Source: Candidatus Beckwithbacteria bacterium (GTDB lineage: Bacteria; Patescibacteriota; Microgenomatia; UBA1400; UBA1449). From it: a stretch of DNA of 64,000 nucleotides. A program made the position numbers and the translations under genes. The notes below the pieces were generated by a model. The model did no database searches. It was given only the letters and a program-made list of their open reading frames with translations, and was not told where the DNA came from. The stretch is taken from contig JAAZOH010000040.1 of the NCBI GenBank assembly GCA_012797845.1, forward strand, positions 57,072-121,071. Reading direction: 5' to 3'. This document shows, one piece after another, positions 14,347 to 51,003 of the stretch; the first letter of the stretch is position 1; the number at the start of each line of letters is the position of its first letter.

Positions 14347-14439
14347 AAAATAAAAATACAAAACTTAGAACATAAGAATATTCTAACATTTAATTGAGTT
14401 TTATATGAATTTGGGAATTCTGATACTTTATCTTTTTAA

Positions 14440-25855: not shown

Positions 25856-25929
25856 ATCAAACCATTATGAAACTATCAGATTATTTCGTCAATTAGAAAA
25901 GTGTGAAAATAAGAAAGTAAAGAAAATAT

Positions 25930-27385
25930 ATGTCGGACCGTCGTATTGTATTGCTTCTCTTTTTTTGTGTTGTTGCTTAAAAAAGAGTCGACGGCCCGAC
26001 TAAGGTAAACAATCAGCCCGATGTTTTGGGCTGATTGAGAATTATCTTTCTAGAACACACTCAGGGAGTATGCTCTAGTTTTCACAACTGGGGTTTGGGT
26101 CCCAGTTGAGAATTGTTTTACTCGGGGTGTGAAAGGGCCGAACTTCCCCGAGTTTTTTCAACAGCTGGGTTGAGTGGACAACCCAACTGAAAATTGTTGG
26201 AGCCCGCCATTGGGCTCCGGAACGCACGACTCTGTGCGTTCAAATAACCTCCCCTTTTTCGGGCATTGTAGTTGGCAACTTCGCCAACCAAAACCCTAAG
26301 AGGTAGGTCATTTTCTTTTTTTTATTTTTTATTGCTGTTGTTTTTCAAAAACCATCATAGCCCCTACGGCTAGGTTTTTGTTAACAACTCTGCCCCCATC
26401 GGACAGCCCAAAAATTCTCAAGAAGAATTCCGGGATTTTACTATCCAAAAAAATCAATAGCAAAATCCCAGAATCCTTACTGTTTACCATATTGTAAAGA
26501 GCCAATTACCACTTTCTAAACTAAAGCTAGTTTTCAGTTGAAAATGATAAATTTGGAAAAGTGAATTTTACTACTTAAAAAGCAAAAAATCAAGACATTA
26601 AAAGAAGAAGGTGAAACTAAAAGAAGTAAATAATATGCCCCAAAACGCGAAACAAGACACCTTCATCTACCTTTCTACTTAACGTAGAAACAACAGGATA
26701 GAATTGGGTGTCTTGTAAAAGACAATGAAACGAAGTCCACGAGGGCTGCAGGGTGTTGCAAAATCTGGTCAATAAGACCTGCAGCCCTCAGCGGACACTT
26801 AGGAAAAGGAGAAGGGTTTCGTCGCGATATTCTGCGACGGGGGTCCAAAGTCAGCCAAGAGACAGCTGACCCGAAAACCCTTCCCTCAAAGGACGGGGTG
26901 GTTCTTCCGGGCGACAGTACAGCAATGATTTCGGGGACCCCTCCCGAAATCCAGAAAATGAACGAAAATACCTTGAGGCGAGCCAGCCTCTCCAGTAACA
27001 AGCTCGCCTCGCCGAGATCTACTTTCCCTCTCCCCAGGGAAATGCAAGCAGGTCTCGGTATTAAAGACCTTTTTCGACCCAACCCAATCGCACTGGGTTG
27101 AGTTGTCCAGATCACCCCCATGTGGGCACATCTCTAAGGGGGGTTCCCTGGACACAACAGGTGCCCAATCATTGAAGGCTAAGTTTCTAGCCATCGATTG
27201 GGCGTTTTTACCGAACTTTTCCTTTCCGGGAGAATTGTCTCCCAGACTTTCAATAAGCTCAGGCAAGCCTATTCTTGCCTGAGTACGACTAAAATAATTC
27301 CACCCGGCAACCTGTGGGACGTCTTGGGTTGCCGGGCTGCGGTGCGCCTGTTGAGGGTGGCGAGGAATGTGAAAGTTTACCATCT
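25930..27385. ncRNA. GC-rich, hairpin-dense non-coding island. Candidate large structured RNA of unassigned family and unknown strand.
   Basis: Base composition rises sharply relative to the flanks. There is no credible ORF, only mutually overlapping garbage ORFs on both strands. Dozens of perfect or near-perfect stems are visible. Examples: gtcggaccgtcg/cgacggcccgac at 25932/25988; gggctgcagg/cctgcagccc at 26743/26778; caagacacc/ggtgtcttg at 26653/26707; a three-way junction at 26811-26883; cccggcaacc/ggttgccggg at 27303/27326. Confidence 0.35.
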
Positions 27386-27636
27386 AATAATTACATGGCA
27401 CACTATCACACTCCTCTTATTTTTCATTCATATTCATATTTCTCCTTTTCCTTATTTCATTGTTAAAGGGCATTAGTCATAAAAAATAAAAAAACCGCTC
27501 TTGGTTTATTATTTTTAACTGACTAATATTATGAGCTATATTATTCAATAAATTATTATTTTGTCAAGAAACATCTTGTATATTAGAGATCTTTATACTT
27601 GTCAAAGGGAATTAAATCTGCAAAGATAATTATGAG

Positions 27637-28285: not shown

Positions 28286-28954
28286 CTACCTGTGATTTTT
28301 CTTAAACCAGTTACTTATAATATTGTTTGTCCTAAACCCATCCCACCAATGCTTGAAAAAGTTTTTATAGTGGTCAAAGTGATGTCCAAATGTTGGCTTA
28401 GGAGTTGGCGTTGGTGTGTGATGGTGATCAGGGTTACCACAACTAAAATTGATGTCAAAATCAAACTTGATACTGCTTTGCTGATACTCATTACCCACTG
28501 ATGAATCAATAGACACGATCCAGTCATAATCTCTTGACTGGCCGTTGCTAAGTGTGCCTAAGTTAATTCTCTCAGTTGCCAGCAGATCGGCTAAAGTTTT
28601 ATCGCTACCAGCCCACCCACTAACTAGAAAATTTCCAAAATAATCAGTGCCATTAGCTCTGATAACGGTAAATAAAACTTCGTCCAAACTTTTAGGCTCA
28701 GTTGCATCTTTTGGCCGGACTAGAAGCGTCAGCTGGCAATCTTTACCAGTAGTGTTTTTGACTGAAATAGTTTTTTGATACGTATCACCTGGTTTAACAT
28801 CTAGTTCCTGAAACAAGGTTTTTTTATCAATAGTCGTCATACTACAACGGCTCTTATCGCATTTGACAGTGCAATCGCTATGAGCAGACACAGGCTGTAT
28901 AAAAATTCCTAAACAAAATAGTGAAAACAGAATTGCTATAAAATATTTAGTCAT
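28286..28954 (-). CDS. Secreted TasA/camelysin (Peptidase_M73)-like protein, His-rich C-terminus.
   Basis: Signal peptide, then LDVKPGDTYQKTISVKNTTGKDCQLTLLVRP. This resembles the TasA core L-PGD-x-K-x-V-N-G motif. Confidence 0.4.
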   Translation of the reverse strand: MTKYFIAILFSLFCLGIFIQPVSAHSDCTVKCDKSRCSMTTIDKKTLFQELDVKPGDTYQKTISVKNTTGKDCQLTLLVRPKDATEPKSLDEVLFTVIRANGTDYFGNFLVSGWAGSDKTLADLLATERINLGTLSNGQSRDYDWIVSIDSSVGNEYQQSSIKFDFDINFSCGNPDHHHTPTPTPKPTFGHHFDHYKNFFKHWWDGFRTNNIISNWFKKNHR

Positions 28955-28957
28955 AGT

Positions 28958-31123
28958 TTATTTTTCCTGCCAAGGAAATGTAATAGTACTTGTCCCAATT
29001 GATGTATCACCATCTTTATATAGTAAATCAATGCTTACAGTTCCGATACCCGTGTGGGCTACACAAGTCAAAAGCTCATCAGAACACGTTCCTAAAAAGA
29101 TCGGATCCAAAATGAGTTGGTTTTGATTGAGTGGCTTATAGGCTTTTCCTTTAATTGTTTCTTCTACTGGTTCATTGCTATACAGATGGTGATAGGAAAT
29201 TGCATAGTCAAGTTCATCAAATCCCCAAGCATTACTAAAGCCAATTAGTAAATAGCTATCCTCTTGGTCTACGGAAACTGAGATATGGCTATGAGGGTTG
29301 GTCCCGGGATTAGGTGTTGCTAATTCTATCCAATCTGAAGGACTATCGGTATCAAAACCTAATGGACTTCTAGCTATTGAATGGCCTTCGGCCACTGCTA
29401 AAGTCCAATCAGGATACAAATGCGGAAAATTATTTGAACATGTTCCGCCATCACAAGAACCTTGTTCCCAGGCTACAAAATCAACAATTTGATCATCACT
29501 GTTTCTAAGTGTTAGCTGGTCACCGTCATTATTAAGCCAAGCTGCAGCACCAGCAAGTTGCACTATCACTGCCCCATTATCGCTAAAGCAATGAATCCAG
29601 GTCCCATTATCATGAGATAAAAGTGCAAAACCATAGGCTGGTATCTCAGGATTACCAGTGATTGTGACCGAACCGGCGTTATCGCTTAAGCTCCAATTTT
29701 TAATATTGACTGCAAAATTATTGGGATTATATAGCTCAATCCACTCACTACTGGCTTCATCGCAGTGAGTAGTATTGGCTACATCATAGTACACCTCATT
29801 GATTACGATTTTAGTAAACTCAGGTCCTGCTGGTATTTTGTGATTACCAAAATCAATATCTTCATAAAGATCTGGACCTGGGAATACGTAGTATTTACTA
29901 CTTGGCATAGTTTGCTGCCAACCGGTTTGGTTTTCTTCAGCCACTACGATTTCGCCATCAACATTGCTCAAGTCTAGTTCATACAGACCATCGGTATCAG
30001 TAATATCAGAACTTACTACTTTAAAGATAGTGACATTTAAATTACCTGTGTTGTTTGTATACAGAATGTCATATATTTTGAAGTTGACCGAAGCCCCAGT
30101 TCCAACCAAACTAGTCCAGTATTCGTGATCACTAGCATAAGGCCCCCAATCAGGAGATGCGCCATCAATTTGTAAATCAAGCAATTCGTATCCATAAGAT
30201 TCCAAACCATTAACTGTATCTGTCCAGTTGGTATCTGGGTTGCGGACTGAGTATTTGGCATCTGCCGTCAAATCGGTATCAGCTTGGTAAGTCCCGGTAA
30301 CCCTCACTAGATATGTAGCTCCATTTTCCAAAACTTCAGAATCTATGCCTGTATTATCATCGGCTGGAACACTAAGTTCCTCAACTTCCTGAGCCGCAAA
30401 AATGTTCCAACCTTCCAAACCTGGTTCAGCTTCATCTTTATCACCATTGCCATCCAAATCATTAAATTTCATGCCAGTTACTTTAGCCCATGACCCGGTT
30501 GAAACACTATTTGCTAAGATTTCTTCATCCCAAAAAGCCTGCCCATAGCTATGCTGCTGCATCCAGGCTTTCGCAACGTATGAAAAATTACAGCTTAAAT
30601 TTCCTAGATTCGGATTCGGATCATCAGGTAAAGAGACCTGATATTCAAACCAATGTTGAGCTAAACCATAATCCGGATTTGGGTAGTAATCAGCAGTAGG
30701 AAAAGATAAATCACCATCTAAACCATTTGTATTAATACTAAAGTCAACCAAAGAACCAGAGTATTTGTTTGTAATTTGTAAAATCCCATGCAAATCATAG
30801 TATTTTAGAAGAACTTCCAAATGCAGGTTTTGGCAAAGCGTTTCGTCACCACTATCAAACTGGTATTTTTGACTGTAAATAAACGGTAAAGCTCCAATTT
30901 GATTAATTAAAGCGCTGCGGGAAGATTCCTTATCAGGCATAAGCAGAGCTGGTTCAAAACCAGTTTGGACTGAATTAAAACCTAAATCTAAATTAGTAGT
31001 TCTAAAAAAATTATCTGAAGATTTTTCTTGATCACTAAATAGCGCTCCAGAAACCGGTAGGAGATACAGATTCAACAAAATGCTTATCAAACACGCTCTA
31101 GTTAAGAAGCTCAAAAGTCTCAT
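28958..31123 (-). CDS. Large secreted protein containing a lamin-tail domain (LTD).
   Basis: Signal peptide present. IVINEVYYD...SSEWIELYNPNNFAVNIKNWSLSD is the LTD signature (INE...EWIEL.N....V.L.GW.L.D). Confidence 0.6.
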   Translation of the reverse strand: MRLLSFLTRACLISILLNLYLLPVSGALFSDQEKSSDNFFRTTNLDLGFNSVQTGFEPALLMPDKESSRSALINQIGALPFIYSQKYQFDSGDETLCQNLHLEVLLKYYDLHGILQITNKYSGSLVDFSINTNGLDGDLSFPTADYYPNPDYGLAQHWFEYQVSLPDDPNPNLGNLSCNFSYVAKAWMQQHSYGQAFWDEEILANSVSTGSWAKVTGMKFNDLDGNGDKDEAEPGLEGWNIFAAQEVEELSVPADDNTGIDSEVLENGATYLVRVTGTYQADTDLTADAKYSVRNPDTNWTDTVNGLESYGYELLDLQIDGASPDWGPYASDHEYWTSLVGTGASVNFKIYDILYTNNTGNLNVTIFKVVSSDITDTDGLYELDLSNVDGEIVVAEENQTGWQQTMPSSKYYVFPGPDLYEDIDFGNHKIPAGPEFTKIVINEVYYDVANTTHCDEASSEWIELYNPNNFAVNIKNWSLSDNAGSVTITGNPEIPAYGFALLSHDNGTWIHCFSDNGAVIVQLAGAAAWLNNDGDQLTLRNSDDQIVDFVAWEQGSCDGGTCSNNFPHLYPDWTLAVAEGHSIARSPLGFDTDSPSDWIELATPNPGTNPHSHISVSVDQEDSYLLIGFSNAWGFDELDYAISYHHLYSNEPVEETIKGKAYKPLNQNQLILDPIFLGTCSDELLTCVAHTGIGTVSIDLLYKDGDTSIGTSTITFPWQEK

Positions 31124-31159
31124 CTACGTCTTTAACCTAACTTTTTAATTATTACTAGA

Positions 31160-31621
31160 TTAATTTTCGTCAAAAACAACTAATTCAGCAGGAAACCCTA
31201 GGGTTGTCGAAATACCGCCTACTGCAATTCTAAATCTATTAACTAAATTACTATCTTCAAAAAAACCTAAATAACCTAAGGCTTCCATTGCTGCACTTAC
31301 TGCTGGTCTAAATTTCTTATCTAGGTTAGCTAGACCATCTAATCCTTCACTACAATTAAACTTATTTATTTGTCTCTTACTCGCTCTAGACTCATGAGCT
31401 AAATTACAGAGAATCCAGGCTGATAATAATTGACGTGCTTTTTGTCTTTGGATTTCTTCCATAGCTCCTACAGGGATTTCATCAAGCCCTGCAGCTGAAG
31501 CTGCTGATTCCTGTACATCAAACGACCTTGCCAAAGGTAATCCCACTGTCCCTTCTCTTCCACCTGCTTCCATAGCAGCTTCTTCAACATGCGATGGAAC
31601 TAACTCAGTTCTTTCTCTCAT
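31160..31621 (-). CDS. Hypothetical soluble protein.
   Basis: 153-aa ORF with no signal peptide. The N-terminus is Ala/Glu-rich. Confidence 0.25.
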   Translation of the reverse strand: MRERTELVPSHVEEAAMEAGGREGTVGLPLARSFDVQESAASAAGLDEIPVGAMEEIQRQKARQLLSAWILCNLAHESRASKRQINKFNCSEGLDGLANLDKKFRPAVSAAMEALGYLGFFEDSNLVNRFRIAVGGISTTLGFPAELVVFDEN

Positions 31622-31673
31622 ATAATTCCTTTCTTTATTTCTTTTTAACTTTAAATAATTTTCTTCACTATTT

Positions 31674-32237
31674 TCATTTTTTTTCTTCAGCTTTTTGCCT
31701 TTTCTTTTCTTTATGTTTTAAAGCCATCTGGCCAAGTTCGGTTTTAATATTGACCAACTCGGCGTAAACAATGATAGTTATTGGCACTACAATTAGAACA
31801 ATAAAACCCATTTGGGTTTGGGCAAAAGCAATCGGATAGCCAAGATAAGGAAGGTAGACAGTAGCTTTACCTACTACCCGATCAGATCTGACCAACTCTA
31901 AATCAGGTGTATTATTAGCATCCCCTTTGGTGCGGTAACTAGTTAACCCTAAATCTTTATCTTGACTGATATCTACAATCCGATGAGTCACTGTTTCTTT
32001 AGGATTGATTTCTCCCCGAAACGTAATTACGTCATTAACTTGGTAATTTTTTTGCGGTGCAACAATTACTAAACTTCCCATGGGAATAGCTGGCTCCATC
32101 GAACCTGATTGCACCATAAAAAGTTTATAGTCGATTGGAGTATTGAGCCGGGTCAGCATTAAACTTCCAGCTATAAGCACTATCAACAAAATCACCAAGG
32201 TATAAAAAATAGTTTGAATGATTTTAAAAATCTTCAT
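31674..32237 (-). CDS. sipW: Signal peptidase I of archaeal/eukaryotic type (SipW-like, S26B).
   Basis: N-terminal TM, then VQSGSMEPAIPMGSLVIV (catalytic Ser box), then ...VTHRIVDI (His box). The 187-aa size fits SipW. Confidence 0.7.
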   Translation of the reverse strand: MKIFKIIQTIFYTLVILLIVLIAGSLMLTRLNTPIDYKLFMVQSGSMEPAIPMGSLVIVAPQKNYQVNDVITFRGEINPKETVTHRIVDISQDKDLGLTSYRTKGDANNTPDLELVRSDRVVGKATVYLPYLGYPIAFAQTQMGFIVLIVVPITIIVYAELVNIKTELGQMALKHKEKKRQKAEEKK

Positions 32238-32312
32238 ATTTTCTTAGCTCGTTTTTAAAAGCAAAAATTGGCTTCTCAAAAACCAACTAAAATATTTCTC
32301 TAGCTAAGGAGA

Positions 32313-32330
32313 GAGGGGCAAATACCCCTC
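32313..32330 (-). terminator. GC-rich hairpin downstream of the 288-aa tasA-like gene. Possible terminator or attenuator.
   Basis: gagggg-caaata-cccctc perfect 6-bp GC stem. A T-rich stretch follows on the minus strand but is not immediately adjacent. Confidence 0.3.
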
Positions 32331-32359
32331 CCTCCCCGCTAACGAAAAAACAAATTAAT

Positions 32360-33226
32360 CTATTGCTCATGCTCTGGACATACATAGTCCATATTGTTCC
32401 GTGATTGAATGGCGGTAAACTTGAGATCGGCAGTCAAAGTATCTGTTTGAGCTGCGTTATTTACCTCTACTCCATTACAAGTAAACCCAGTTCCTCTGAC
32501 TAAAGGACCAGTTGTATCTTCAGGTAAAGGAGTCAGTGTCATTTCACCAAAGCACCAACCCTTACCAATATAATAGGTTTGCAAGCCTTTTAGAGGCAAT
32601 ACGGTGTCACCTTGATCCAATCTGGTTCTATCAAAAAAGTTAAGATACTTATCAGCTAAGGTTAATTGAATTGTATTATCAGTACCTAAAAGATTTGCAA
32701 TAGTTTCAGGCCCAAGATAGTACTTAGAGGCTTCTTCATTTTCTTCCAAAACATTGTCACCATCATCAGCCCACCAAACAAATTCAATACCTTGAGCTAG
32801 CTCACCATCCATAAGTTCAGCTGATTCTGTTGCGCAACTTGGATCATCATCTAATTCTGGTTCACTACAGCCATTATCAGCATTGCTGGTTAAAGTTAAT
32901 TCGGCACAAGCCCAAGCATCGTTATTATCAACAGTTAAATCAATGGTATCCTCACCAATATCGCCTGGCTTTATATCCGTAAAATCAAAAAACTTATTTA
33001 CTGTAGTTAAGTCAGCACTAATCCATGACGTATTTGGGCTTGCAACTAACGCACCAGTAATTTGATCTGAAACATAGCTATCATTACTTACTTTCAAATC
33101 AATTGATCCAGCAGTAAAAACATTATTAGTTGAGGTTTCGGTATCAGAAAAATATGCTTGAGTAGCATAGACGCCAATTGCCCCAACTGTAGCAATAGTT
33201 AAAACACTTAGTAAAATTTTATTCAT
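32360..33226 (-). CDS. TasA/CalY/camelysin family fibre protein with SipW-cognate signal peptide.
   Basis: The N-terminus ...VGAIGVYATQAYFSDTETSTNNVFTAGSIDLKV matches the SipW-cognate class signal (AxFSDxE.S.N.F.AGT.DL). A strong AAGGAGGTGA Shine-Dalgarno sequence lies 6 nt upstream. Confidence 0.65.
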   Translation of the reverse strand: MNKILLSVLTIATVGAIGVYATQAYFSDTETSTNNVFTAGSIDLKVSNDSYVSDQITGALVASPNTSWISADLTTVNKFFDFTDIKPGDIGEDTIDLTVDNNDAWACAELTLTSNADNGCSEPELDDDPSCATESAELMDGELAQGIEFVWWADDGDNVLEENEEASKYYLGPETIANLLGTDNTIQLTLADKYLNFFDRTRLDQGDTVLPLKGLQTYYIGKGWCFGEMTLTPLPEDTTGPLVRGTGFTCNGVEVNNAAQTDTLTADLKFTAIQSRNNMDYVCPEHEQ

Positions 33227-33232
33227 ATTTTT

Positions 33233-33242
33233 TCACCTCCTT
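33233..33242 (-). promoter_or_regulatory. Shine-Dalgarno sequence AAGGAGGTGA for the tasA-like gene.
   Basis: The reverse complement of tcacctcctt lies 6 nt upstream of the ATG at 33226. Confidence 0.5.
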
Positions 33243-33293
33243 AAAGTGAAATTTATTATTTTTCTAACAAAGCAAAAGTAATGCGTCAACCGC

Positions 33294-34607
33294 TTACCTA
33301 TCTGACTCTAAACAGGTATTAACTTGTACAGCATCTACTGCATCCAAATCATAGCCATCAGCATCACTTTGGCTAAAATCAGCCGGATTACTAGTATCAA
33401 CAATCCGGACAAATTTGACCCAATCAAAACCTGATCCAGAGATATCAACATAAGATACTCCAGAACTACTATCATGATTGCTAATCGTGCCAATATAGAC
33501 GAAACTATTCCCATCCTGACTTACAAAAATATCAGCTGTTTCATTGGGGTAACTAGATCGGCCATTGGTCACCTCATGGAAAGAAATGTCTCCGGCACTT
33601 ACATTCGCAGTATCGTCAACAATCGGATTAGCAAAAGACACAGTAATTTGGCCGCCAAAACCAAGGCTGACAAAATTGCCATCCAGTGCTCCCTCAACTG
33701 AAGCTGGATTGCTTCTATTAGCTAAAACCGGTGTTCCATTTTTACGTAAACCCTGCACTAGGGTAAAAGCCTGATCAGCATAAACCGAATCTTCAATACA
33801 AGTCGGACAAACAAAGCTGTCATTATGCCTGGCTTGGAAAATATTAAAAACCACGTCTGCCATAACTCTGTCTGTCTGAGCTAAATTAAGATCAGCTGTG
33901 CCATCACAAATCACCCCTGGGTTAACTGTGGGATCTTGGCCAACTGCTACTGGTGCTTTTGTTAGTGTCCCAAAGCACCAGGCTTTACCGATAAAATAAT
34001 CTTGATTACCAGCTTGCAATGGTCCGCTACCATCCCAAAGATTGTGACTTGCATCAGCTAAAGTCCATTTGCCATTGTTTATCAAAGTATAAGCCGATCC
34101 TTCAAACAATATTTTATCTAGTTCGTTATTTTCCAAAACATTGTCACCATCATCAGCCCAGAAAATCATATTGAGATTTTGAGCCAGTTCTCCATCCCAA
34201 AGATCCTCTGTATCCTCGCTGTCTCCAGCCGTCAGTTCTGGTTCATTTGCTGTGTTTTCATCATTTTGAGTTAGTGTGATATCCATACACGCCCAAGCTG
34301 GATTGTCTGCTACATGCAAGCTAATAGTATCCTCACCTAAATCCCCTGGTTTAAGATCATGAAAATCAAAAAAGAGTTGGTTGGTAAGATTAGTTAGTTC
34401 CCAAGTAGTGCTCTCCATAAGTTCTAATCCACCATCTACTGAAAAACCATTGTAGTAACTATGATTATCAACTTTTAAGTCAATTGTCCCAGCTGTCAGT
34501 GAGTTGCCAGTTGAAGTTTCAGTGTCTGAAAAATAAGCAGATGTAGCTACTACTCCAACGATTGCTACAAAACTTAGCGTTAACAGGCTTAAAAAAATTT
34601 TTTTCAT
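33294..34607 (-). CDS. TasA/CalY/camelysin family fibre protein (long paralog) with SipW-cognate signal peptide.
   Basis: N-terminus ...VGVVATSAYFSDTETSTGNSLTAGTIDLKV. The first ~150 aa are collinear with the upstream paralog, and a ~150-aa C-terminal extension is added. Confidence 0.65.
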   Translation of the reverse strand: MKKIFLSLLTLSFVAIVGVVATSAYFSDTETSTGNSLTAGTIDLKVDNHSYYNGFSVDGGLELMESTTWELTNLTNQLFFDFHDLKPGDLGEDTISLHVADNPAWACMDITLTQNDENTANEPELTAGDSEDTEDLWDGELAQNLNMIFWADDGDNVLENNELDKILFEGSAYTLINNGKWTLADASHNLWDGSGPLQAGNQDYFIGKAWCFGTLTKAPVAVGQDPTVNPGVICDGTADLNLAQTDRVMADVVFNIFQARHNDSFVCPTCIEDSVYADQAFTLVQGLRKNGTPVLANRSNPASVEGALDGNFVSLGFGGQITVSFANPIVDDTANVSAGDISFHEVTNGRSSYPNETADIFVSQDGNSFVYIGTISNHDSSSGVSYVDISGSGFDWVKFVRIVDTSNPADFSQSDADGYDLDAVDAVQVNTCLESDR

Positions 34608-34680
34608 GTTCTCTTCACCACCTTTCTTTTATCTTATAGTTTATTAAAACTATCCTTTAATATTTGAAATCTTAAGCAAC

Positions 34681-34702
34681 AAAAAACCAGCACGTGTGCT
34701 GG
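34681..34702 (-). terminator. Rho-independent terminator after the sortase gene.
   Basis: On the minus strand the sequence reads ccagcacacgtgctgg followed by TTTTTTG. That is a 7-bp stem, a 2-nt loop and a T-run. Confidence 0.45.
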
Positions 34703-34903
34703 CTTATGATGTAAGACCTTTGTGGCCAAGATTGTATCTGGTAGTGTAGCTATTTTGCATGCTTTAGCAGTATTTTTTTGTACTGCATAAAAAGATTTCC
34801 ACAGCTTTTAGCAATTTTAAAGTAACGATTTTCTATACACTTGTCAATATGCATTTTGAAAATTATAGCTAACTCAATTATAGTTATAGGTTGCGAATAA
34901 GAA

Positions 34904-35461
34904 TTATAGGGAAGATTGTGGTTTAGCTACCACCACTAAGCGCTTTTGGTCCCAGAAACCAGTACAGGTATATAACGTCAATCGTTGATCTTTACTTTGA
35001 TCCAGCACTTCAGCTTGATTAGAAGAAACTACTCTAATACTTTGAATAGTAAAATTTTGTACTGACTTATCGGAAAATTGGATAGTTATAGTCTGACCAA
35101 CTTTAGCTTTATTAAGATTGCCAAGCAGACTATTCCAGTTGTGACCATACAAAACACTATTACCCATTTGTCCAGGTAGTGGTGTATCCAAAAGGTAGAC
35201 AATTCCTTGGCTAGGCGCACTCCAATGGCTATCAGCAAAGCTCATTGCTTGTACAGCAACATCTATATCCAAAGCTGAGATTTGCAGTCTAACGGGAAGT
35301 TTGGAGGTATTTTGAGTAGTAGTTGTATTTTGAACTAGCTGAGTATTAGTAAAACTTAGTTTGGCCGGCACATACTTTTGCCACAGCAAATAGCCCGCTG
35401 TCATTAGAAAACAAAAGCCAATGATTAAAAAAACTTGAGAAGGTTTTACAAAACTGCTCAC
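34904..35461 (-). CDS. Sortase (transpeptidase).
   Basis: N-terminal TM anchor, His in LYGHNW, catalytic Cys in LTLYTCTG (TLxTC motif), and a downstream conserved Arg. Size 185 aa. Confidence 0.7.
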   Translation of the reverse strand: MSSFVKPSQVFLIIGFCFLMTAGYLLWQKYVPAKLSFTNTQLVQNTTTTQNTSKLPVRLQISALDIDVAVQAMSFADSHWSAPSQGIVYLLDTPLPGQMGNSVLYGHNWNSLLGNLNKAKVGQTITIQFSDKSVQNFTIQSIRVVSSNQAEVLDQSKDQRLTLYTCTGFWDQKRLVVVAKPQSSL

Positions 35462-35471
35462 AAGCTAAACC

Positions 35472-36368
35472 TTAACGGACTGATTTTTTATGCAAGACCC
35501 AGCTGCCAGCAAAACTTAATCCCGCTAAACCTAAGAGCATAGCAATTTCATCAGTTGTTCCAGTATCAGCTAAGCCTAAAATAGCTCCACCAATACCGGT
35601 TGAATTGTCGTACCAGGAGCTGCTGGTTCCTAAAATTGAACCGCCACCAATACCGCTATCGCAAATTAGCGTATCAATGTAAACAGCTTGATTAGGGAAA
35701 TTGTCTTCTGCTTCAGCTTCGATTGAGCCTTCACCACTATGGCTATAAGAAACACTGGCTCGACCGTCTTTATTGGTATGGGCAATTTGCCGCATACCAC
35801 GGTAAATAAAGGTAACCTTAACTCCTTCAACTTTATTGCCGTTTTCTCTGGCATCATAAGTCACTTCAATAGCACTATCTTCACAAGTCGGCCCGTTTTT
35901 ACCCATACTAGAGTGTTTACCACCATCTGGATTAGGCGTACTAGTTGGGGTTGGTTTGGGACCACTGCCACAATCATAGTACTGGTTTTGGGCCAGATAT
36001 GGAGCTTGGGATAATCCCCAAACTTCCCCATTGGGCACATAATACCAACCTTGTTTTCTAAAAGCGTTAATATCATCTTGAGAAAGATCACCAATTTGCC
36101 ACCAATTAGTTTGAGTGCCATTGCCACCTTCTGGACAAAAGCATTGAATCAGTAGATCCGAACTAACTTGATAGACCTGATCAGAACCATGGTTATCAGT
36201 AATAACTCCCACAATGCCGTGCAAACCATCACTATAATTTGCAATAATTTCTCCTCTAGGACTAGCACATGATGGAAAATCTGGAGCAGAAACTGCTAAG
36301 GCTTTTTGAGCAAAAAAGGTAAATAGAAGAATAAAAAAACTGCCCAAAGTAATAATTTTTTTCAACAT
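35472..36368 (-). CDS. Secreted sortase substrate with an LAxTG-type sorting signal (LADTG).
   Basis: Signal peptide present. The C-terminus is ...GLADTGTTDEIAMLLGLAGLSFAGSWVLHKKSVR. That is a motif, then a hydrophobic stretch, then a positively charged tail. It is immediately upstream of the sortase gene. Confidence 0.55.
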   Translation of the reverse strand: MLKKIITLGSFFILLFTFFAQKALAVSAPDFPSCASPRGEIIANYSDGLHGIVGVITDNHGSDQVYQVSSDLLIQCFCPEGGNGTQTNWWQIGDLSQDDINAFRKQGWYYVPNGEVWGLSQAPYLAQNQYYDCGSGPKPTPTSTPNPDGGKHSSMGKNGPTCEDSAIEVTYDARENGNKVEGVKVTFIYRGMRQIAHTNKDGRASVSYSHSGEGSIEAEAEDNFPNQAVYIDTLICDSGIGGGSILGTSSSWYDNSTGIGGAILGLADTGTTDEIAMLLGLAGLSFAGSWVLHKKSVR

Positions 36369-36474: not shown

Positions 36475-37728
36475 TTAGAAGTTATACTCTTTTTTAAAAA
36501 GACTGCTAATAAATTCTGTAATGCTTTTTTTGAGACGAAACAACCAATCTTCGCGATGTTTTCGCAGGATTATGGTCATGGGCTGGCTGCGGTAAGCTAA
36601 ATTAACCGTTTGACTATCATAACCATCAGCAGAAATAGTCAGCGTAGGATTGCTCTCTAAAAACGGCAGGATAAATTGACCGTCACGACCAGTTACTATA
36701 TGAAAGTACGGGCTGGTCACAGCTACACTATCTAACTTATCACCTGTTATATCTTTAACTACACCACTGGCGACTTGCGGCTGAAAGTATTTTGTCAAAA
36801 CAGTAACTGCAGACCTAGGTCTACCATCTTCATACCAAAGTTGGGTTGAACTGCCAGTATTGGCCCAGTAATTTACACCAATAAGTTCTGGAGTTTCAGC
36901 TAAAGCTAACATGGCAGTATCCAGCCATTCCGCCTGTTCCTGCTCAGACATATCACCATGCAAATCAGGAATAGGAGCACCAAATTCTCCTAAAACGATT
37001 TTTCCACCCGTAGCTTGGGCATACCTGCGAATATCATCAGCTAAACGCTTCGGGCTTTCCACATAGTGGTCAATCACCACAACTCCATCTAAGGCTTTAG
37101 TAGTTTCAGGATCCATAATCAGCATGGCCACATCTCCATTCATGGAAAAGTAGTTGGTCTTAACATCTTTACCGATACTCTCAAAAGCTGTCTGGCTAAT
37201 CTTATATTCATTAATAAGAAAATTGCGGAAGCCTTCAACATCTCCGGTTTTTCTGGGATCACCCGGTCCACCATTCTCACATTCTGGACAAGAGCTAAAA
37301 ATATCACCATCTTTAAACAGCCCTGGGTTGTCTTCAATAAATTGCTTGGTTTTAGCTAAGTGTTCTTCCCGGCTAATGCTAGGGTATTCAAACCAGCCCT
37401 CCCAACCGGCCCAATTACCCCGAAACCAAACGTTCAATTGGTACTTTCGCGCAGCTGTCACCCAACGTTTTAAAATAGGTAAAAATTCCACATCATAGGG
37501 GGTAGCAATAGCTACATGAGTAGCTCCGGTTTTGGCAATATTGCTGATCTGGACATCAATAACCATATCAAAATCCCGATCACCTAATTTTTCCCGAGCT
37601 TTATCACGGGAGTATTTCATGGTATCAACCGACTGCACCTGCCACCAGGGAACTTCATTATCAGCGTAAACTGGTTGGGGAAACAGTAAAAATAGACAGA
37701 TGATTAAGCTAATTAGAATCTTTTTCAT
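36475..37728 (-). CDS. Secreted glycoside hydrolase, GH5-like TIM-barrel.
   Basis: Signal peptide. NVWFRGNW...LINEY (candidate acid/base NE) and KIVLGEFG (candidate nucleophile Glu in a GEFG context) resemble clan GH-A. Start trimmed to MKKILISL. Confidence 0.45.
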   Translation of the reverse strand: MKKILISLIICLFLLFPQPVYADNEVPWWQVQSVDTMKYSRDKAREKLGDRDFDMVIDVQISNIAKTGATHVAIATPYDVEFLPILKRWVTAARKYQLNVWFRGNWAGWEGWFEYPSISREEHLAKTKQFIEDNPGLFKDGDIFSSCPECENGGPGDPRKTGDVEGFRNFLINEYKISQTAFESIGKDVKTNYFSMNGDVAMLIMDPETTKALDGVVVIDHYVESPKRLADDIRRYAQATGGKIVLGEFGAPIPDLHGDMSEQEQAEWLDTAMLALAETPELIGVNYWANTGSSTQLWYEDGRPRSAVTVLTKYFQPQVASGVVKDITGDKLDSVAVTSPYFHIVTGRDGQFILPFLESNPTLTISADGYDSQTVNLAYRSQPMTIILRKHREDWLFRLKKSITEFISSLFKKEYNF

Positions 37729-37732
37729 AGCT

Positions 37733-39364
37733 TTACAATTGATTGGCCTCCGGATTACCCAACAGGCGGGGCACATATTCAGGCTTGAGTTCGTAAATAT
37801 CGGCAAATGGATACTTAGCCATCAGCTTATATTTTTTAAAACCACTGGTCTTACTGACTAGCTTATAGGTTAAATCATTATCATCATAGGTGCGCAAAAT
37901 AATCCAACGAACCCAACGATCCGGATAAGCTGTAGCATCCAGCCAGTAATCACCCGTCCCTTCATGGATAAAGCGCCGCATCGGTAAACCAGAAGAAAAG
38001 ATGATAGCATCATGAGAAGCAGCCGAAATCAGAATCAAACCTGGATTATCATAAGTTCTGGATTTGAGCCAACCAGATACCTCGCTGACATTTTTCTGAG
38101 AAGAACCAACCCTGGCATCATCTATAGTCACTGCATCATGATTGACTATAGCAAAGAAACTAACCATAAGTAGTAAGCCAATATAAACCCATTTCAGCTG
38201 TTTAGCCCGGTCAACTAAATAGCCAAGATAAATTGCAATAGAAGGCATCAGCATGACTCCATACCGGACATTAAACCAGGTATTGCCGGAAATACCTTGG
38301 ATAAAAAGAACTGAGTGGCCAAAAAATAAAGCAATGATATTGAAAAAAAGTGGAGCCAGTAAAGCAATACTTGCAATCTTGACTTCGCTTTTAAGCTTTT
38401 TATCAAACCAAAACCATATTGCTCCCACAAAACCTAACAGCGCCGGAATAGTGTATGAATTGTAAAAAAGGGCATAGAGATACACTTTTACAGATAAAAG
38501 TAGATTATGTTGGGTGGGTAAATTCCCGGCTGCTTCCAGCTGCTTTTGCTGAGCTCGGGCTGAGAAAGGCCCAAAAGCAAAGTAAAGGGCGTCTTTAAAA
38601 ATCAATTGGTTCCAGAGTAGCCATAAAAAAATCCCAAAAGCAGCCAGAGTACAAAACATAATCACGATACCTTCTGTGGTTTTATAGCCTTTTTTCCGGT
38701 ATACCTGAAAGGCAATTAAAATGGTCGAAACAAACAGTAAAAACCAGCCGTCGTAACGAATTAACGTTGATAGCATTATCCAAAATGAGGCTTTTATCAG
38801 TTCCAGCAATCGATTAGTTTGGAACCAACGTAGCAGATAGTAGGCACCACCTGTCATGGTTCCTAAAAGCAGAAGCTCGGTCATAGCAGTTGACTGCAAA
38901 TATAAAACATTTAAATTAGCCGCCCAAATAAAAACTGCCACCAACCTACCCAATAAACCAACTTTTATTTTTTGCAAAAACAGATAGATGATAATTCCGG
39001 TGGCCACATAGGCAATCATAGATTGCAAAGCTCCAGCTAACCCTGAGTGCCACATAAAATCACTCCAGACGGTGGGCACCATCAGCAAATGTGGCAACGG
39101 TAACCAAACCGAACCCAGTTGAGCTAATCCTGGTTTAAGACCTTCAACTACCCTTCGCCCAATATCCAGATGAGACCGAGCGTCATTGTAAGCAATACCA
39201 AGACCGTTATAGTAGTATGTCCAAAAAGTAACTATAGCTGTAATCGTTAAAGCTAAGGCTATAACCACTAAAGCATACTTATTCACTATCAGTTCGGCTT
39301 TTTTAAGCCAGGATTTTGGTAATGAAAAGCTAATGGTTTCTGGTATAAGCTTATTTTTTTTCAT
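37733..39364 (-). CDS. GT-C fold membrane glycosyltransferase (ArnT/PMT-like).
   Basis: 543-aa polytopic membrane protein. The N-terminal loop YNDARSHLDIGRRVVEG resembles the D-x-R-H-type first-loop motif of GT39/83 enzymes. Confidence 0.4.
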   Translation of the reverse strand: MKKNKLIPETISFSLPKSWLKKAELIVNKYALVVIALALTITAIVTFWTYYYNGLGIAYNDARSHLDIGRRVVEGLKPGLAQLGSVWLPLPHLLMVPTVWSDFMWHSGLAGALQSMIAYVATGIIIYLFLQKIKVGLLGRLVAVFIWAANLNVLYLQSTAMTELLLLGTMTGGAYYLLRWFQTNRLLELIKASFWIMLSTLIRYDGWFLLFVSTILIAFQVYRKKGYKTTEGIVIMFCTLAAFGIFLWLLWNQLIFKDALYFAFGPFSARAQQKQLEAAGNLPTQHNLLLSVKVYLYALFYNSYTIPALLGFVGAIWFWFDKKLKSEVKIASIALLAPLFFNIIALFFGHSVLFIQGISGNTWFNVRYGVMLMPSIAIYLGYLVDRAKQLKWVYIGLLLMVSFFAIVNHDAVTIDDARVGSSQKNVSEVSGWLKSRTYDNPGLILISAASHDAIIFSSGLPMRRFIHEGTGDYWLDATAYPDRWVRWIILRTYDDNDLTYKLVSKTSGFKKYKLMAKYPFADIYELKPEYVPRLLGNPEANQL

Positions 39365-40940
39365 GGTATGCCTGCCAATATAGTAACCCTGCTAAACCAC
39401 CACTAATCCAAACTAAACATGTTGCAATAAGTAAATAGTACTGAGTTGCACTAAGATAAGTATGGCCCCAAGTTTGATATACAAAAGATTTTGATTGGTT
39501 ACTTTGCAAAAATTCCCAACTACGTAAAAAGTTGTAGTGTTCAACTCGGCCCGAAAGTTTTTCTAAAGCGAGCACTTCAACCTTGGGAGGAATAGCACTG
39601 CTGGTGATAGCTCCCAATGTATTGATATAAATTGAGTATGCCATTACTGGCAAAAAGATGATTAAAAACCAAGGTTTATGTTTAAAATAATCAACTAGAT
39701 AAGCAATGCCAATAGCTAAAATGGCATAGCCTGGCACCAGATAACGCGAACCAAAAGCCCAACCACCCCAGGGATCACCCCAAAGTGAATACAGAGTTAG
39801 ATTAACCCCAACTATAGCAATCAATACAGCTGCTATATATGGTTTTTTCAAAAAAAGCAGCCAAAGCCCCAAAGCCCCAAAAAACATAATAGGGGTAAAC
39901 CATAAGATACTGCGATCAGAACCAATAAGGTGGGTATAGAGTCCATTTACTAAATTTCTGGTTTTGAAAAAACCAACTGCTGATTTTTTTTGCAGTTCGG
40001 GATTAAGGTACGTTTGCATATCTAAAGTCCCAATTTCAGTTGGCGTGGTTGGCTTCCCTTGCTCATCAATAGCATTAACACTGGAAACCGTCCCGGAAAA
40101 CTGGAAGGGATTGCCATAGGATTGCTGATTGAACCACATAAAAAAATATAGTGGCAATACAACAGTAGCAATAGATAAAATACCGGGTAACCATAGAGAA
40201 ATTTTGACTTTAGCTCTCCCTGGACTAATTATTAACAATCTTCCAGCTGCAAATAGAGCAATCGGAAACATCAAGAATAAATTTGGGTAATCAATAGGAA
40301 TGGCGGCGGCGGCCAAAAACCAAATCAAGCCTAGCGACCACCAGGTTTTAAATTTGATGAGCAAATAGAGACTGGCTAATATTAGAAACGTTGAAATATG
40401 GTGTTGGAAAAACGAAACTCCATACACAAAGGCTGGAGTAGCAAAGAGGAAAATCAAACCTCCCAATAAAGCAGCCAGCTTTGGCACACCTAAAAGTCGG
40501 GCAATAGCTTGGATTAAAATCAGGTTTAAAAGTGCAAAAAGCGCCACAATCGCATAGGTACCAATTTGAGCAGCTCCAAACAACTTTCCTACCATATAAC
40601 CAGGAGCTGTCATAAAAGAAACCCCGGGAGCAAACATGGAAACGTAGTGTCCATTTTTATAGCCTAAATCAGGCGTAGCAAACCGGGCCACCGGCAGGGA
40701 AAAATAAAATGATTTGTCTTCAACCAGCGAGTAAAGCAAGGCAAAGCGACCTCGCTCTGGTGAAAGCTCCAATGGTCCTTTATCTGTCCAGTAAGCACTG
40801 GTCAACTCCTGAGCGACTGGATTACCAAGCCTGCCTCGCAAGGCTAAAACAATAGTTAAACATGCTAGGGCTAAAACGAAAATGGTAATAAAATCAATTT
40901 TTTTAAACATAAGTAAAGTATAGCAAGTGAATAAGGTCAC
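39351..40940 (-). CDS. Polytopic membrane protein, putative GT-C/YfhO-like glycosyltransferase.
   Basis: 529 aa with >10 TM helices. It is operonic with GT and deacetylase genes. No decisive motif. Confidence 0.3.
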   Translation of the reverse strand: MTLFTCYTLLMFKKIDFITIFVLALACLTIVLALRGRLGNPVAQELTSAYWTDKGPLELSPERGRFALLYSLVEDKSFYFSLPVARFATPDLGYKNGHYVSMFAPGVSFMTAPGYMVGKLFGAAQIGTYAIVALFALLNLILIQAIARLLGVPKLAALLGGLIFLFATPAFVYGVSFFQHHISTFLILASLYLLIKFKTWWSLGLIWFLAAAAIPIDYPNLFLMFPIALFAAGRLLIISPGRAKVKISLWLPGILSIATVVLPLYFFMWFNQQSYGNPFQFSGTVSSVNAIDEQGKPTTPTEIGTLDMQTYLNPELQKKSAVGFFKTRNLVNGLYTHLIGSDRSILWFTPIMFFGALGLWLLFLKKPYIAAVLIAIVGVNLTLYSLWGDPWGGWAFGSRYLVPGYAILAIGIAYLVDYFKHKPWFLIIFLPVMAYSIYINTLGAITSSAIPPKVEVLALEKLSGRVEHYNFLRSWEFLQSNQSKSFVYQTWGHTYLSATQYYLLIATCLVWISGGLAGLLYWQAYHEKK

Positions 40941-41716
40941 CGGTGGGTAAAGTAATATTCGGGCAAATCTGGCACAAGTCCTTTTGGAAATAACCCAAAA
41001 ATTTGAGTTTTATAGCCTTTGATCATGGTTTTCTTTTGATCTCCACATTTAGAAAATCTGGTTTTGATCAATTGATTTGTTTTAATAAATTCTGTGTCCA
41101 AATCTTCCTTTAACCCATAAGGAAAATCCAACCAGTAGACTACGTTTCTTGCCAACTTACTACAAACTTTTCTGATAATAATGTGGTCAACATGCTTACC
41201 AACTCCCAGTGGAGCAAAGACTACAGCTTTTTTTGGTATTTGTCTTGCTAGCTGGTCACTAATTTGATTAATCAAAGTATTTTCTTCTTTGGCTACTTGA
41301 CCCAATAACACATGCCATCGATACGTAGGGTAGACGTGTAAAAATTCCGGTAACAGTTTGCCCAAAAATTGTAAAAATTGTTTATTGCTTTGTTTTTTAC
41401 GGAAAGAGGCATCAGTATATGGTAAATGTTCAACTTTGACATTGTGGAGCTTAAACACTTCCCTATCCTCTACTCTTCTATCTGCAAAAAGTTTTTGTAA
41501 ATCTTGGTAACCGTTGACTTTTAAATGCTGTCTCCCTGACAACGTATATGGCCCTTCTGAGCCTTTGGTAAAAACAGTTATGACAGTCACTTTGGTTTTT
41601 GAGCTTAGGTATGCAATCAAATCCCCAGCCGACAAAGCCGCATCATCCAAGTGGGGCGAGATAAAAAAGCAGGGAATTTTTTCTTTGACAATGGTTGCTA
41701 GTAATGTTTTAAACAT
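40937..41716 (-). CDS. PIG-L/LmbE family N-acetylglucosaminyl deacetylase.
   Basis: FFISPHLDDAALSAGDLIAYL matches the PIG-L motif (SPHxDD). Confidence 0.7.
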   Translation of the reverse strand: MFKTLLATIVKEKIPCFFISPHLDDAALSAGDLIAYLSSKTKVTVITVFTKGSEGPYTLSGRQHLKVNGYQDLQKLFADRRVEDREVFKLHNVKVEHLPYTDASFRKKQSNKQFLQFLGKLLPEFLHVYPTYRWHVLLGQVAKEENTLINQISDQLARQIPKKAVVFAPLGVGKHVDHIIIRKVCSKLARNVVYWLDFPYGLKEDLDTEFIKTNQLIKTRFSKCGDQKKTMIKGYKTQIFGLFPKGLVPDLPEYYFTHR

Positions 41717-42818
41717 AATTTTTATTTACTAGAACATCTTTAATTATTTGTTTGTATTTTTCTACTACTAAATCCCAACTAAATATTTTTACTCCTTCTT
41801 CGCAAGCATGGGAAATAGCGGTTCTCAGTTTTTCATCTTGGCCCATTGTTTTAATAGCTTGAGATAATGCTTCTTTATCAAAGTCTTTTACGAGATAGCA
41901 GCAATCTTTAGGAATCCAACTAAGGCCATCAATAGTAAAACCAACTATGGGTAACCGATAGGCTAAAGCTTCCAAAGCTACTACTGAAAAAGTTTCAAAC
42001 CTAGAAGGAATCACAATAAAAGAAGCTTGGCGGAGCAATTTCCTTTTTTCTTTGCCAACAACTTTACCGAGCAATATAACTCTATCTTGCAATTCTAGTT
42101 TGTGTATCATTTTTCTCAACCGATTTTCTTCAGTTTTAGTTCCACTCCCAGCAATAATCAAGTTCTGCTTAACTTGATCCTCAGTTTGTTTATACGATTC
42201 AAGTAAGATATCTAATCCCTTTTGGTCAATTTCCAATCTTCCTAAAAACAGAATAAAATTTTTATGAGTTTTGGTGGTTGGCAAAGCATACACATCAACT
42301 CCATTGCTGACTACATACATTTGAGCTTTAGGATTGACGGCTGAAATTCTGTTTTTAATCTTTTGAGTTAAAACAATAAAATGCTGATAACTACGAAGTC
42401 CAAGGTTTTCAAAAAAAATAAACGGTAGCTTGTACTTGCGCTGCATATCTTCCCCTGCCAGCATGTGCACTAAACCTATCACCGGTTTTTTAGTAAACAG
42501 TGGTAAACAGGTAGTAGAAAATGGTGGGGTAAAGCTTTCAATCCATAAATCATATTGTTCACTGATGGCTTTGTAGATTAAAGCAATTTGAAATGCCAAC
42601 TGACTCAGTTTTGGTCCCAACCAAGTTATTCCAATATGGCAATACTGTATTCTATTGATTTTTTTATCATGACAACCCGGATATTTGCCTGTAAAAATAG
42701 TAACGTTATAGTTTTTAGTTAACGCCTTAGCTACTTTATGTACTGCTAAAGCTCCACCTCCTGCATAGTAAGGATTTTTTAGACTGTCGTAGCTGGAAAA
42801 AACTATACGTGCTTTCAT
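41709..42818 (-). CDS. Family 4 glycosyltransferase.
   Basis: C-terminal FVIPSRFETFSVVALEALAYRLPIV is the GT4 EX7E region. Confidence 0.7.
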   Translation of the reverse strand: MKARIVFSSYDSLKNPYYAGGGALAVHKVAKALTKNYNVTIFTGKYPGCHDKKINRIQYCHIGITWLGPKLSQLAFQIALIYKAISEQYDLWIESFTPPFSTTCLPLFTKKPVIGLVHMLAGEDMQRKYKLPFIFFENLGLRSYQHFIVLTQKIKNRISAVNPKAQMYVVSNGVDVYALPTTKTHKNFILFLGRLEIDQKGLDILLESYKQTEDQVKQNLIIAGSGTKTEENRLRKMIHKLELQDRVILLGKVVGKEKRKLLRQASFIVIPSRFETFSVVALEALAYRLPIVGFTIDGLSWIPKDCCYLVKDFDKEALSQAIKTMGQDEKLRTAISHACEEGVKIFSWDLVVEKYKQIIKDVLVNKNYV

Positions 42819-44652: not shown

Positions 44653-44661
44653 AGGAGTAAC

Positions 44662-45228: not shown

Positions 45229-45231
45229 AGT

Positions 45232-49842: not shown

Positions 49843-50039
49843 AATAATATAGAAACCAGGCTTGAATCATTGTAAGTACTTTAAATTAAGACCTATATAA
49901 TTCGATAATTAATTATAAATGAATTTTATATAAGTATTATACCTAATATTACAGATATAGCAATATTTTCCTATATTATTAATATAAATGACATTAAGTT
50001 ATGAAAATTGGGAGGGGTTGAAAAAAACTTAAGGAAAAA

Positions 50040-51002: not shown

Positions 51003-51003
51003 A

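Follow-up and report, generated by a model that had tools for sequence, protein, structure and literature searches.

A probable TasA-superfamily fibre operon in Candidatus Beckwithbacteria, with candidate subunits for the two fibre ends

Candidatus Beckwithbacteria bacterium, a member of the candidate phyla radiation (CPR), probably encodes an extracellular fibre of the TasA superfamily in a single operon, at positions 28286-34607 of the minus strand of the 64,000-nucleotide stretch of contig JAAZOH010000040.1 analysed here (the window). Nine co-directional minus-strand open reading frames (ORFs) lie in the operon and directly upstream of it according to the ORF list of the window. p443, LADTG298 and the sortase Srt185 come first in transcription order, followed by a 296-nt gap, the TasA-like proteins TasA437 and TasA288, a 122-nt gap, the signal peptidase SipW187, p153, the lamin tail domain (LTD) protein LTD721 and, with its start codon 3 nt past the LTD721 stop, p222. 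All genes that a first-pass annotation of this DNA had listed are in place on the minus strand, but p153, between sipW and the LTD gene, had been overlooked. The same annotation guessed at a CPR host, and correctly: TasA288 and GYA49_05545, a protein from a metagenome-assembled genome (MAG) of Candidatus Beckwithbacteria, are 100% identical, which confirms the origin.

TasA-like subunits and their signal peptidase

TasA437 (33294-34607, minus strand) and the single-domain TasA288 (32360-33226, minus strand) are 48% identical, and both begin with a signal of the SipW-dependent type. Their SipW-cognate motifs read ...ATQAYFSDTETSTNNVFTAGSIDLKV and ...ATSAYFSDTETSTGNSLTAGTIDLKV, and both proteins exceed the TIGR04088 cut-off of 19 bits (TasA288 24.2 bits, TasA437 30.5 bits), in agreement with the first-pass reading of these two AYFSDTETS proteins. 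Cleavage is predicted after ATSA in TasA437, directly before its donor-strand motif YFSDTETSTGNSLTAGTIDLKV, and between ATQA and YFSD in TasA288. Past the signal, conventional searches find little. The TasA/CalY family profile PF12389 scores 24.7 bits on TasA288, just over its cut-off of 22.5, and 20.4 bits on TasA437, under it; the alignments take in only residues 19-50 and 20-50, respectively, and cover profile positions 21-51 of 196, so that neither protein has a full-length match. Searches of PDB sequences with TasA288 and with a profile of 71 family sequences did not find TasA. Because the PF12389 match is limited to the signal region and the PDB sequence searches are empty, plain profile searches support the signal and nothing beyond it.

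Profile alignment and predicted structure reach further. The CPR family aligns with Bacillus subtilis TasA in hhalign (probability 87.5%, E 3.5e-6; TasA sequence verified as identical to 8AUR chain A) over TasA residues 3-80, a stretch that spans the signal, the donor strand (TasA residues 28-38) and the KPGD strand, with an insertion of ~27 residues after the first strand in the CPR proteins. The AlphaFold model of TasA288 has a pLDDT of 88.2, with low confidence confined to residues 21-40, and in Foldseek its sole match at E<=1e-3 is 8aur_A (E 3.7e-4, probability 0.99, with TM scores of just 0.29/0.35). The 8AUR TasA fibre is the top structural match of both modelled proteins by two methods, and the comparison with B. 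subtilis TasA that the first pass called for supports a TasA-like beta-sandwich (jelly-roll) fold for TasA288 and TasA437. The poorly packed part of the TasA288 monomer model is restricted to ~21-40, the predicted mature N-terminus, and residues ~25-43 form a free N-terminal extension in the model, a putative donor strand. TasA and BsaA monomers have likewise been described with an unpacked N-terminal extension (PMC9674648, PMC11580942). On the strength of the hhalign alignment to TasA residues 3-80, the 8AUR match, the unpacked mature N-terminus and the gene context, TasA288 and TasA437 are divergent members of the TasA superfamily; the proposed TasA/CalY identity holds at that level, and not as strict membership of PF12389.

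The N-terminal strand motif is the best-conserved part of this CPR family, with F26, D28, E30, S32, N35, A39, G40, D43 and L44 invariant across the 71 sequences. Asn35 and Lys86 are both invariant in the family. TasA288 has more than 2,150 relatives, some of which already carry the NCBI name 'TasA family protein', and among the 120 matches listed every organism-named one is from the CPR. TasA437 matches the family hidden Markov model with an E of 2e-113; its beta-sandwich core comprises residues ~40-275, and an extra C-terminal domain (residues ~275-437), not assigned to a family, has no Pfam or PDB sequence match. Relaxed-threshold Pfam searches of this domain, of sub-regions of LTD721 and of the N-domain of LADTG298 returned only sub-threshold SdrD_B and Flagellin_D3. 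Pfam annotations of the matches give other CPR TasA paralogs varied C-terminal domains, for example VWA and SpaA-like ones. Two further features of TasA288 stand out within the family: residues 152-164 hold an invariant acidic loop, W-x-D-D-G-D-N-x-x-E, that resembles a calcium-binding site, and of Cys107, Cys225, Cys250 and Cys283 three are invariant and one near-invariant, so that disulfides are possible. To our knowledge, neither the loop nor these cysteines are features of B. subtilis TasA.

SipW187 (31674-32237, minus strand), 122 nt past TasA288, is a SipW-type (archaeal/ER-type) signal peptidase I. TIGR02228 scores 115.1 bits on it against a cut-off of 51.85, the boxes SGSMEP, THRI and GDAN with the catalytic Ser and His can be read directly, and transmembrane (TM) helices lie at both its N- and C-terminus; the first-pass assignment of an S26B peptidase next to the TasA genes is thus borne out. 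The score on NF046067, the Bacillus SipW equivalog model, is 124 bits against a cut-off of 190, below the bar. The next gene, p153 (153 aa; 31160-31621, minus strand), is an orphan with no signal peptide and only a weak, sub-threshold Pfam match. No homolog occurs in the 78 related loci described below, and among 1.84 billion representative proteins its sole match is itself. A GC content at third codon positions of 0.195 suggests that p153 is really coding, and its membership in the fibre system is doubtful.

Related loci and the minor subunits

A scan of GTDB species representatives gave 501 confirmed matches. The best 78 loci (numbered with an L below), mostly under CPR names and with some binned MAGs labelled Gammaproteobacteria or Pseudomonadales, were compared by ORF calling with phmmer and hmmsearch. 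TasA-like ORFs occur in 78/78, usually as 2-5 paralogs, and sipW follows the tasA genes in 67/78. LTD-bearing genes come after sipW in ~20/78 loci, with the LTD fused to SipW in six more, and p222-like genes are found in 34/78, mostly as the last gene. The order that recurs in related CPR loci is a run of tasA genes, usually a hairpin, sipW, an LTD protein and a p222-like protein. In L083, at 72% identity the closest relative, a run of four tasA genes precedes sipW, a 636-aa LTD protein and one more gene, and L081 and L079 have a similar layout.

The hairpin of the window is a GC-rich stem-loop at 32308-32337 on the minus strand, inside the TasA288/sipW gap, and the segment 32295-32350 folds with a minimum free energy (MFE) of -34.7 kcal/mol (z -6.2). 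In 43 of the related loci the corresponding gap measures 45 nt or more; 33 of these contain a comparable hairpin (<= -18 kcal/mol within 50 nt), and in 36 the z-score at the position is <= -3. We regard it as a putative attenuator or mRNA-stabilising hairpin, which would let the major subunits outnumber SipW and the minor subunits.

LTD721 (28958-31123, minus strand), a minor subunit, carries the SipW-cognate signal and the donor-strand motif …VSGALFSDQEKSSDNFFRTTNLDL at its N-terminus, followed by a TasA-like N-domain (~40-215), an SdrD_B-like region (sub-threshold match, E 0.12), a lamin tail domain at residues 437-552 (PF00932, 58.2 bits against 34.3) and an unassigned C-terminal domain. 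In hhalign, its N-terminus aligns with the TasA-like family over residues 24-51 (probability 96.5%, E 8.7e-10) and its N-domain with the p222 family over 130 columns (probability 95.7%). The alignment of LTD-type proteins always retains the donor motif, with its Asn invariant, and has no Lys at the KPGD position. The lamin tail domain recognised at first pass is therefore present, but the protein is not a mere neighbour of the fibre genes: it shares their SipW motif and recurs after sipW, and reads as an integral, recurrent component of the system.

In some related loci the link to the peptidase is direct, and many of the long sipW ORFs are fusions. In-frame sipW fusions are found at L024 13855-15471, L030 11725-13083, L053 13711-14922, L022 13453-15183, L057 14439-16007 and L045 12464-13228, where SipW continues into a basic linker on the cytoplasmic side, one more TM helix (the third), the SipW-cognate motif (e.g. 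SASFFSDTEGSLGNLFRAGEW) and LTD or other domains; in the L045 fusion almost nothing follows the motif. These natural fusions tie the LTD-bearing donor-strand module to the peptidase, and such a fused peptidase would carry its own substrate. For LTD721 itself we propose a role like that of TapA, in which it would nucleate or cap the fibre and expose adhesin-type domains.

p222 (28286-28954, minus strand) is a TasA-like subunit that appears fitted to accept a strand and not to donate one. It has an ordinary signal peptide (…PVSA, then HSD), a TasA-like beta-sandwich with PGD and GNEYQ…F.F motifs, no SDTETS..N.F.AG donor motif, and a tail made of a His/Pro/Thr linker and a basic-aromatic end. No family profile matched p222, and a word-index homolog search with p222 alone returned only itself, so its family had to be built from neighbouring genes of related loci (alignment A2) and extended by profile search. 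The family strands read PlF..N.(K/L)PGD…V.N and AGNEYQ…v.FD, the latter recalling the TasA segment NKYQGNSIKLQFSFEATQ. Throughout alignment A2, the donor motif is missing from p222-type proteins, and their signal peptide is of the ordinary kind. Four kinds of C-terminus occur: a TM helix in Parcubacteria-type loci; RTX calcium-binding repeats ending in CEL in Microgenomates-type loci; an LSDTG sorting signal in L032 7824-8495; and a PT-rich linker with a basic-aromatic tail in the p222 of the window and in L040. We propose that p222 is a terminator or cell-proximal end subunit. By its fold it is indeed the third TasA-like protein that the first pass had placed at this position; the three TasA paralogs counted there are borne out as TasA-like proteins, but the TasA-type domains number four, the N-domain of LTD721 being the fourth. 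The public annotation of p222, GYA49_05525 (184 aa), takes Met39 as the start and so loses the signal peptide. Since that peptide aligns with those of all p222-family homologs, the start that gives 222 aa is the likelier one.

The sortase module and the flanking DNA

Upstream of the fibre genes lie Srt185 (34904-35461, minus strand), a sortase of 185 aa with an N-terminal TM anchor, and LADTG298 (35472-36368, minus strand), a secreted, Cys-containing surface protein of 298 aa. Srt185 scores 79.2 bits against 26.6 on PF04203 and 43.2 bits against 39.35 on TIGR01076, and the His-Cys-Arg triad can be read directly in YGHNW, LYTCTG and KRLVVV. Its class is less clear, as every NCBIfam class model tested (A-F types) fell far under its cut-off, the best being class F with 48 against 166 bits. 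LADTG298 ends in a canonical sorting signal (…LGLADTG, a hydrophobic stretch and HKKSVR), the only one in the 64-kb window, and is predicted to be the cognate substrate of the adjoining sortase. None of the TasA-like, p222 and LTD-N profiles matches it, and over its first ~145 aa it shares homology (E 4e-40) with an LATTG protein of L024 that likewise adjoins a sortase.

The first-pass annotation had counted both genes as parts of the fibre system. They are certainly present, and a functional role in the fibre, for example covalent anchoring of the fibre to peptidoglycan or the provision of its base, can be argued for on several grounds. Both adjoin the fibre genes on the same strand; the pair of LADTG298-type substrate and sortase recurs beside the TasA locus of L024, on the opposite side, and sortase-substrate pairs also flank loci L023, L030, L045 and L048; the p222-like paralog of L032 ends in the sorting signal already mentioned; and Clostridium perfringens offers a precedent, with a sortase gene next to its bsa operon and LPXTG in some bsaB (PMC11580942). 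Furthermore, the 1.19 Mb of flanks contain seven sortase-like genes, ~2-6 times the number expected (P 2e-4 to 0.07) if CPR genomes hold 1-3 sortases per Mb, a density that we assumed; this enrichment is weak evidence, because the loci are phylogenetically non-independent.

The arguments for separate modules are stronger. None of the four TasA-like proteins of the window (TasA437, TasA288, LTD721 and p222) has a sorting signal. Of the neighbourhood that the first pass had put forward for a conservation survey, the tasA-sipW-LTD(-p222) part recurs, but a sortase was found near just 6/78 related loci and not in the other 72, within flanks of at most 10 kb and often shorter. In at least five of those six, a substrate of the LAxTG or LPxTG type adjoins the sortase; those with LAxTG that were tested, three in number, are not TasA-like. 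No sortase shows up in the sequence available for L083, L081 and L079, the closest relatives, with the upstream part short in L083 and L081. A terminator-like hairpin also separates the sortase from the tasA genes, at 34684-34705 on the minus strand, inside the sortase/TasA437 gap and 77 nt before the TasA437 start codon. It consists of AAGCCAGCAC-ACGT-GTGCTGGTT followed by TTTTTTGTTGC, matches a consensus scan and folds with -14 kcal/mol (z -2.8); since terminator-like sites in the region are not above chance in total, it is merely suggestive. A riboswitch or leader RNA in the 296 nt ahead of TasA437 found no support, as Rfam gave no match there at E values up to 1. Sortase and LADTG298 thus look like a self-contained two-gene module for cell-wall anchoring, loosely linked to the fibre genes and only in some Microgenomates lineages. 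We consider a functional tie between sortase and fibre, here or elsewhere in Microgenomates, unlikely.

Some of the sortase neighbourhoods in related loci have features of their own. In L030, a sortase-like gene (14284-14907, plus strand) directly follows a p222-like gene, and because the Cys of its TLxTC box is replaced (…TIMTLWPPGTSLRR), it may be an inactive pseudo-sortase. The substrates in L045 (15511-16632, minus strand) and L048 (17573-18697, minus strand) end in LPATG/LPDTG and are built from N/G/S/Q-rich repeats (…NGAGSSNT…VEQ.N.A…) of an unassigned family; small secreted proteins with the same repeats lie beside Microgenomates TasA loci at L045 14300-14917 and L028 14872-15474.

p443 (36475-37806, minus strand), the first gene in transcription order, lies outside the system. 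BLASTP shows no similarity to the GHL10-type hydrolase found upstream of a relative's locus, and p443 homologs do occur near two other loci, but with unrelated genes in between. Further out on both sides (1959-24548 and 36475-51032), ORF translations read by eye look like those of cell-envelope glycan genes, with sugar-nucleotide dehydratases, epimerases, glycosyltransferase-like proteins and large multi-pass membrane proteins. Some ~1.8 kb without a convincing ORF (25856-27636) have a GC content of 50-54% against a background of ~37%, most conspicuously at 26640-27420 and 26000-26300. The strands fold with an MFE of -335/-319 kcal/mol for 781 nt, with z ~-10 against shuffles for both. The stretch has no Rfam match and no tRNA or tmRNA, and BLASTN against the related loci that were fetched found nothing similar; it is a candidate for a large structured RNA or hairpin-rich element.

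Donor-strand assembly and related filaments

In TasA fibres, the N-terminal strand of one subunit (residues 28-38) completes the beta-sandwich of the next (PMC9674648), and the first donor strand is supplied by TapA (PMC9674648, PMC10151520). The proteins of this operon divide along the same lines: TasA437 and TasA288 have both donor strand and acceptor fold, LTD721-type proteins are donors that lack the KPGD Lys, and p222-type proteins are acceptors only. A motif that is common to the subunits, LTD721 and the SipW fusions and is missing precisely in p222 is the pattern that a donor-strand polymer with defined ends predicts.

Beyond the observed folds, motifs, fusions, synteny and hairpin conservation, we infer cleavage, polymerisation, polarity, anchoring and a role of the fibre in host attachment, the last of which is plausible. 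TasA437 and TasA288 would be exported and cut by SipW after ATSA or ATQA, where the motif, the peptidase family and the gene linkage are observed and the cut is predicted. The freed strand YFSDTETST.N.F/LTAG would then insert into the beta-sandwich of a neighbour, and the shaft would grow by donor-strand exchange. LTD721 would give the first strand, as TapA does, and because it donates that strand it would sit at one fibre end, the one with a free acceptor groove, where it could display its LTD and SdrD-like domains. p222 would take the last donor strand and, since it has an acceptor fold and no donor strand, end the fibre; the TM helix, RTX repeats or sorting signal of its relatives suggest that this is the end at the cell. 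The hairpin between tasA and sipW probably sets the stoichiometry, with the major subunits in excess.

Several points weigh against this model. Polymerisation is argued from fold and motif homology, that is, from genes, and the cell-facing end of the fibre is deduced from the tails of homologs; the p222 of the window has neither a TM helix nor a sorting signal, which makes its attachment to the cell a guess. About one third of the related loci have no detectable LTD or p222-type genes, the presence of the orphan p153 in the middle of the operon has no explanation, and the similarity to PF12389 ends at residue ~50, with empty profile searches of PDB sequences.

The proteins might instead be surface proteins that do not polymerise, monomers or lattice formers such as an S-layer-like coat, a matrix or lectin-type adhesins, which use SipW for export only, with LTD721 and p222 as independent surface proteins. 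A generic beta-sandwich with moderate fold scores and varied, adhesin-like C-terminal domains (VWA, SpaA-like) would suit such proteins, and fibres are here deduced from genes. However, the N-terminal strand motif would then have little reason to be the most conserved part of the family, with nine residues invariant in 71 sequences, to be shared with LTD721 and fused to SipW in some genomes, and to be missing precisely from p222-type proteins, and we find this explanation somewhat less probable still than a functional sortase. A reading of the AYFSDTE proteins as secreted metalloproteases of the camelysin type (M73), as the 24.7-bit Peptidase_M73 match might indicate, we reject as extremely improbable, given that the match covers the signal region only, that no HExxH-type motif was seen in either sequence and that the peptidase assignment of CalY is probably a misidentification (PMC11580942).

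The nearest known systems include the biofilm fibre operons of Bacillus. As in tapA-sipW-tasA of B. subtilis and sipW-tasA-calY of B. cereus, a dedicated SipW-type peptidase is encoded beside its substrates, which have the same SipW-cognate signal, the TasA-like fold and, at the N-terminus, a strand alignable with the donor strand of TasA (28-38) and the KPGD strand; there are multiple major paralogs, compare TasA and CalY, and a minor protein has a donor-like N-terminus, as TapA has. In contrast to Bacillus, the order is two tasA genes, hairpin, sipW and minor subunits, the core beyond residue ~50 has no similarity that PF12389 detects, and SipW187 stays under the Bacillus SipW equivalog cut-off. 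The ~27-aa insertion after the first strand, the conserved Cys pairs and the invariant acidic WxDDGDNxxE loop set the CPR subunits apart, the minor donor is a 721-aa multidomain LTD protein and not TapA, and the acceptor-only p222 is an extra with no described Bacillus counterpart.

The sipW-bsaA-bsaB-bsaC operon of C. perfringens (PMC11580942) likewise combines SipW with several paralogs that are remote TasA homologs and with an accessory adhesin-domain protein, the VWA protein BsaC there and the LTD protein here, while some CPR paralogs have VWA domains. A sortase gene adjoins both operons, and some members of the BsaA/TasA family carry LPXTG. The neighbours already described for operons of that family include signal peptidases, sortases and proteins with LPxTG or SpaA domains, and the sortase next to bsa is on record too (PMC11580942). 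TasA (PF12389) homologs have also been noted in Patescibacteria (PMC9245690); the first-pass statement that such a system was not described in this arrangement was therefore overstated. The CPR proteins belong to another phylum and are far diverged, and nothing here indicates dependence on a type IV pilus. BsaA has an isopeptide lock, N35-E56-K74, with which the invariant Asn35 and Lys86 of the CPR family are not equated, and a BsaA-like covalent locking of subunits through these two residues would be speculative.

Other filaments are more distant. The archaeal TasA-like donor-strand filaments (AbpA bundling pili of P. calidifontis, threads of S. acidocaldarius, cannulae of P. abyssi) have no dedicated SipW (PMC9245690) and different accessory proteins, and their sequences are unrelated at the profile level. 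SpaA-type pili resemble the locus in having a sortase and an LPxTG-type substrate beside fibre genes, but the fibre subunits here have no sorting signals, the class C sortase model reaches 36.5 bits against a cut-off of 160, and the only substrate is a single small surface protein; this is not a sortase-assembled pilus. The Pam pili described in Ca. Mycosynbacter amalyticus, also a member of the CPR, and reported chiefly from Saccharimonadia and Microgenomatia (bioRxiv 10.64898/2026.03.03.709456), are likewise CPR surface filaments formed by donor-strand exchange. One operon encodes several pilin paralogs, and both a tip subunit and a terminator anchored in the membrane have been proposed or described for them. 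Their pilins, however, consist of two domains, with the linker between these as the donated strand, whereas the subunits here are single-domain with an N-terminal donor strand; Pam has PapD/FimC-like membrane-anchored chaperones and no chaperone-like gene is seen here; and the paper mentions neither the SipW found here nor TasA. By its published description alone, the Pam pilus is a different system.

The locus is thus the CPR version of the known tapA-sipW-tasA and bsa systems and not a new class. What may be new lies in the accessory genes, as the literature searched holds no account of an LTD donor-strand cap, an acceptor-only subunit with variable tails, SipW::LTD fusions or the conserved hairpin, and the sortase part of the earlier claim adds little. 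Our tentative picture, which we hold with much less confidence than the operon itself, is a polar CPR fibre in three parts. An LTD cap, released by SipW and sometimes as a self-processing SipW::LTD fusion, may form the distal end; the shaft may consist of at least two paralogs with swappable C-terminal adhesin domains; and an acceptor-only terminator may be fixed to the cell by lineage-specific tails (TM helix, RTX repeats or sorting signal).

CPR bacteria (Patescibacteria) are thought to live attached to other microbes, and the only CPR surface filaments with direct evidence that we know of so far are type IV pili and, very recently, Pam pili. A three-part fibre, if true, would be a second widespread appendage of these episymbionts for host attachment or matrix formation, beside type IV and Pam pili. 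Its accessory genes bear on how chaperone-free donor-strand fibres start, end and are retained on the cell, and offer a clean comparative test. Loci of this type are present in CPR species genomes by the hundred, and thousands of metagenomic proteins match as well; if fibres are indeed made, they would be a major uncharacterised surface structure of the CPR.

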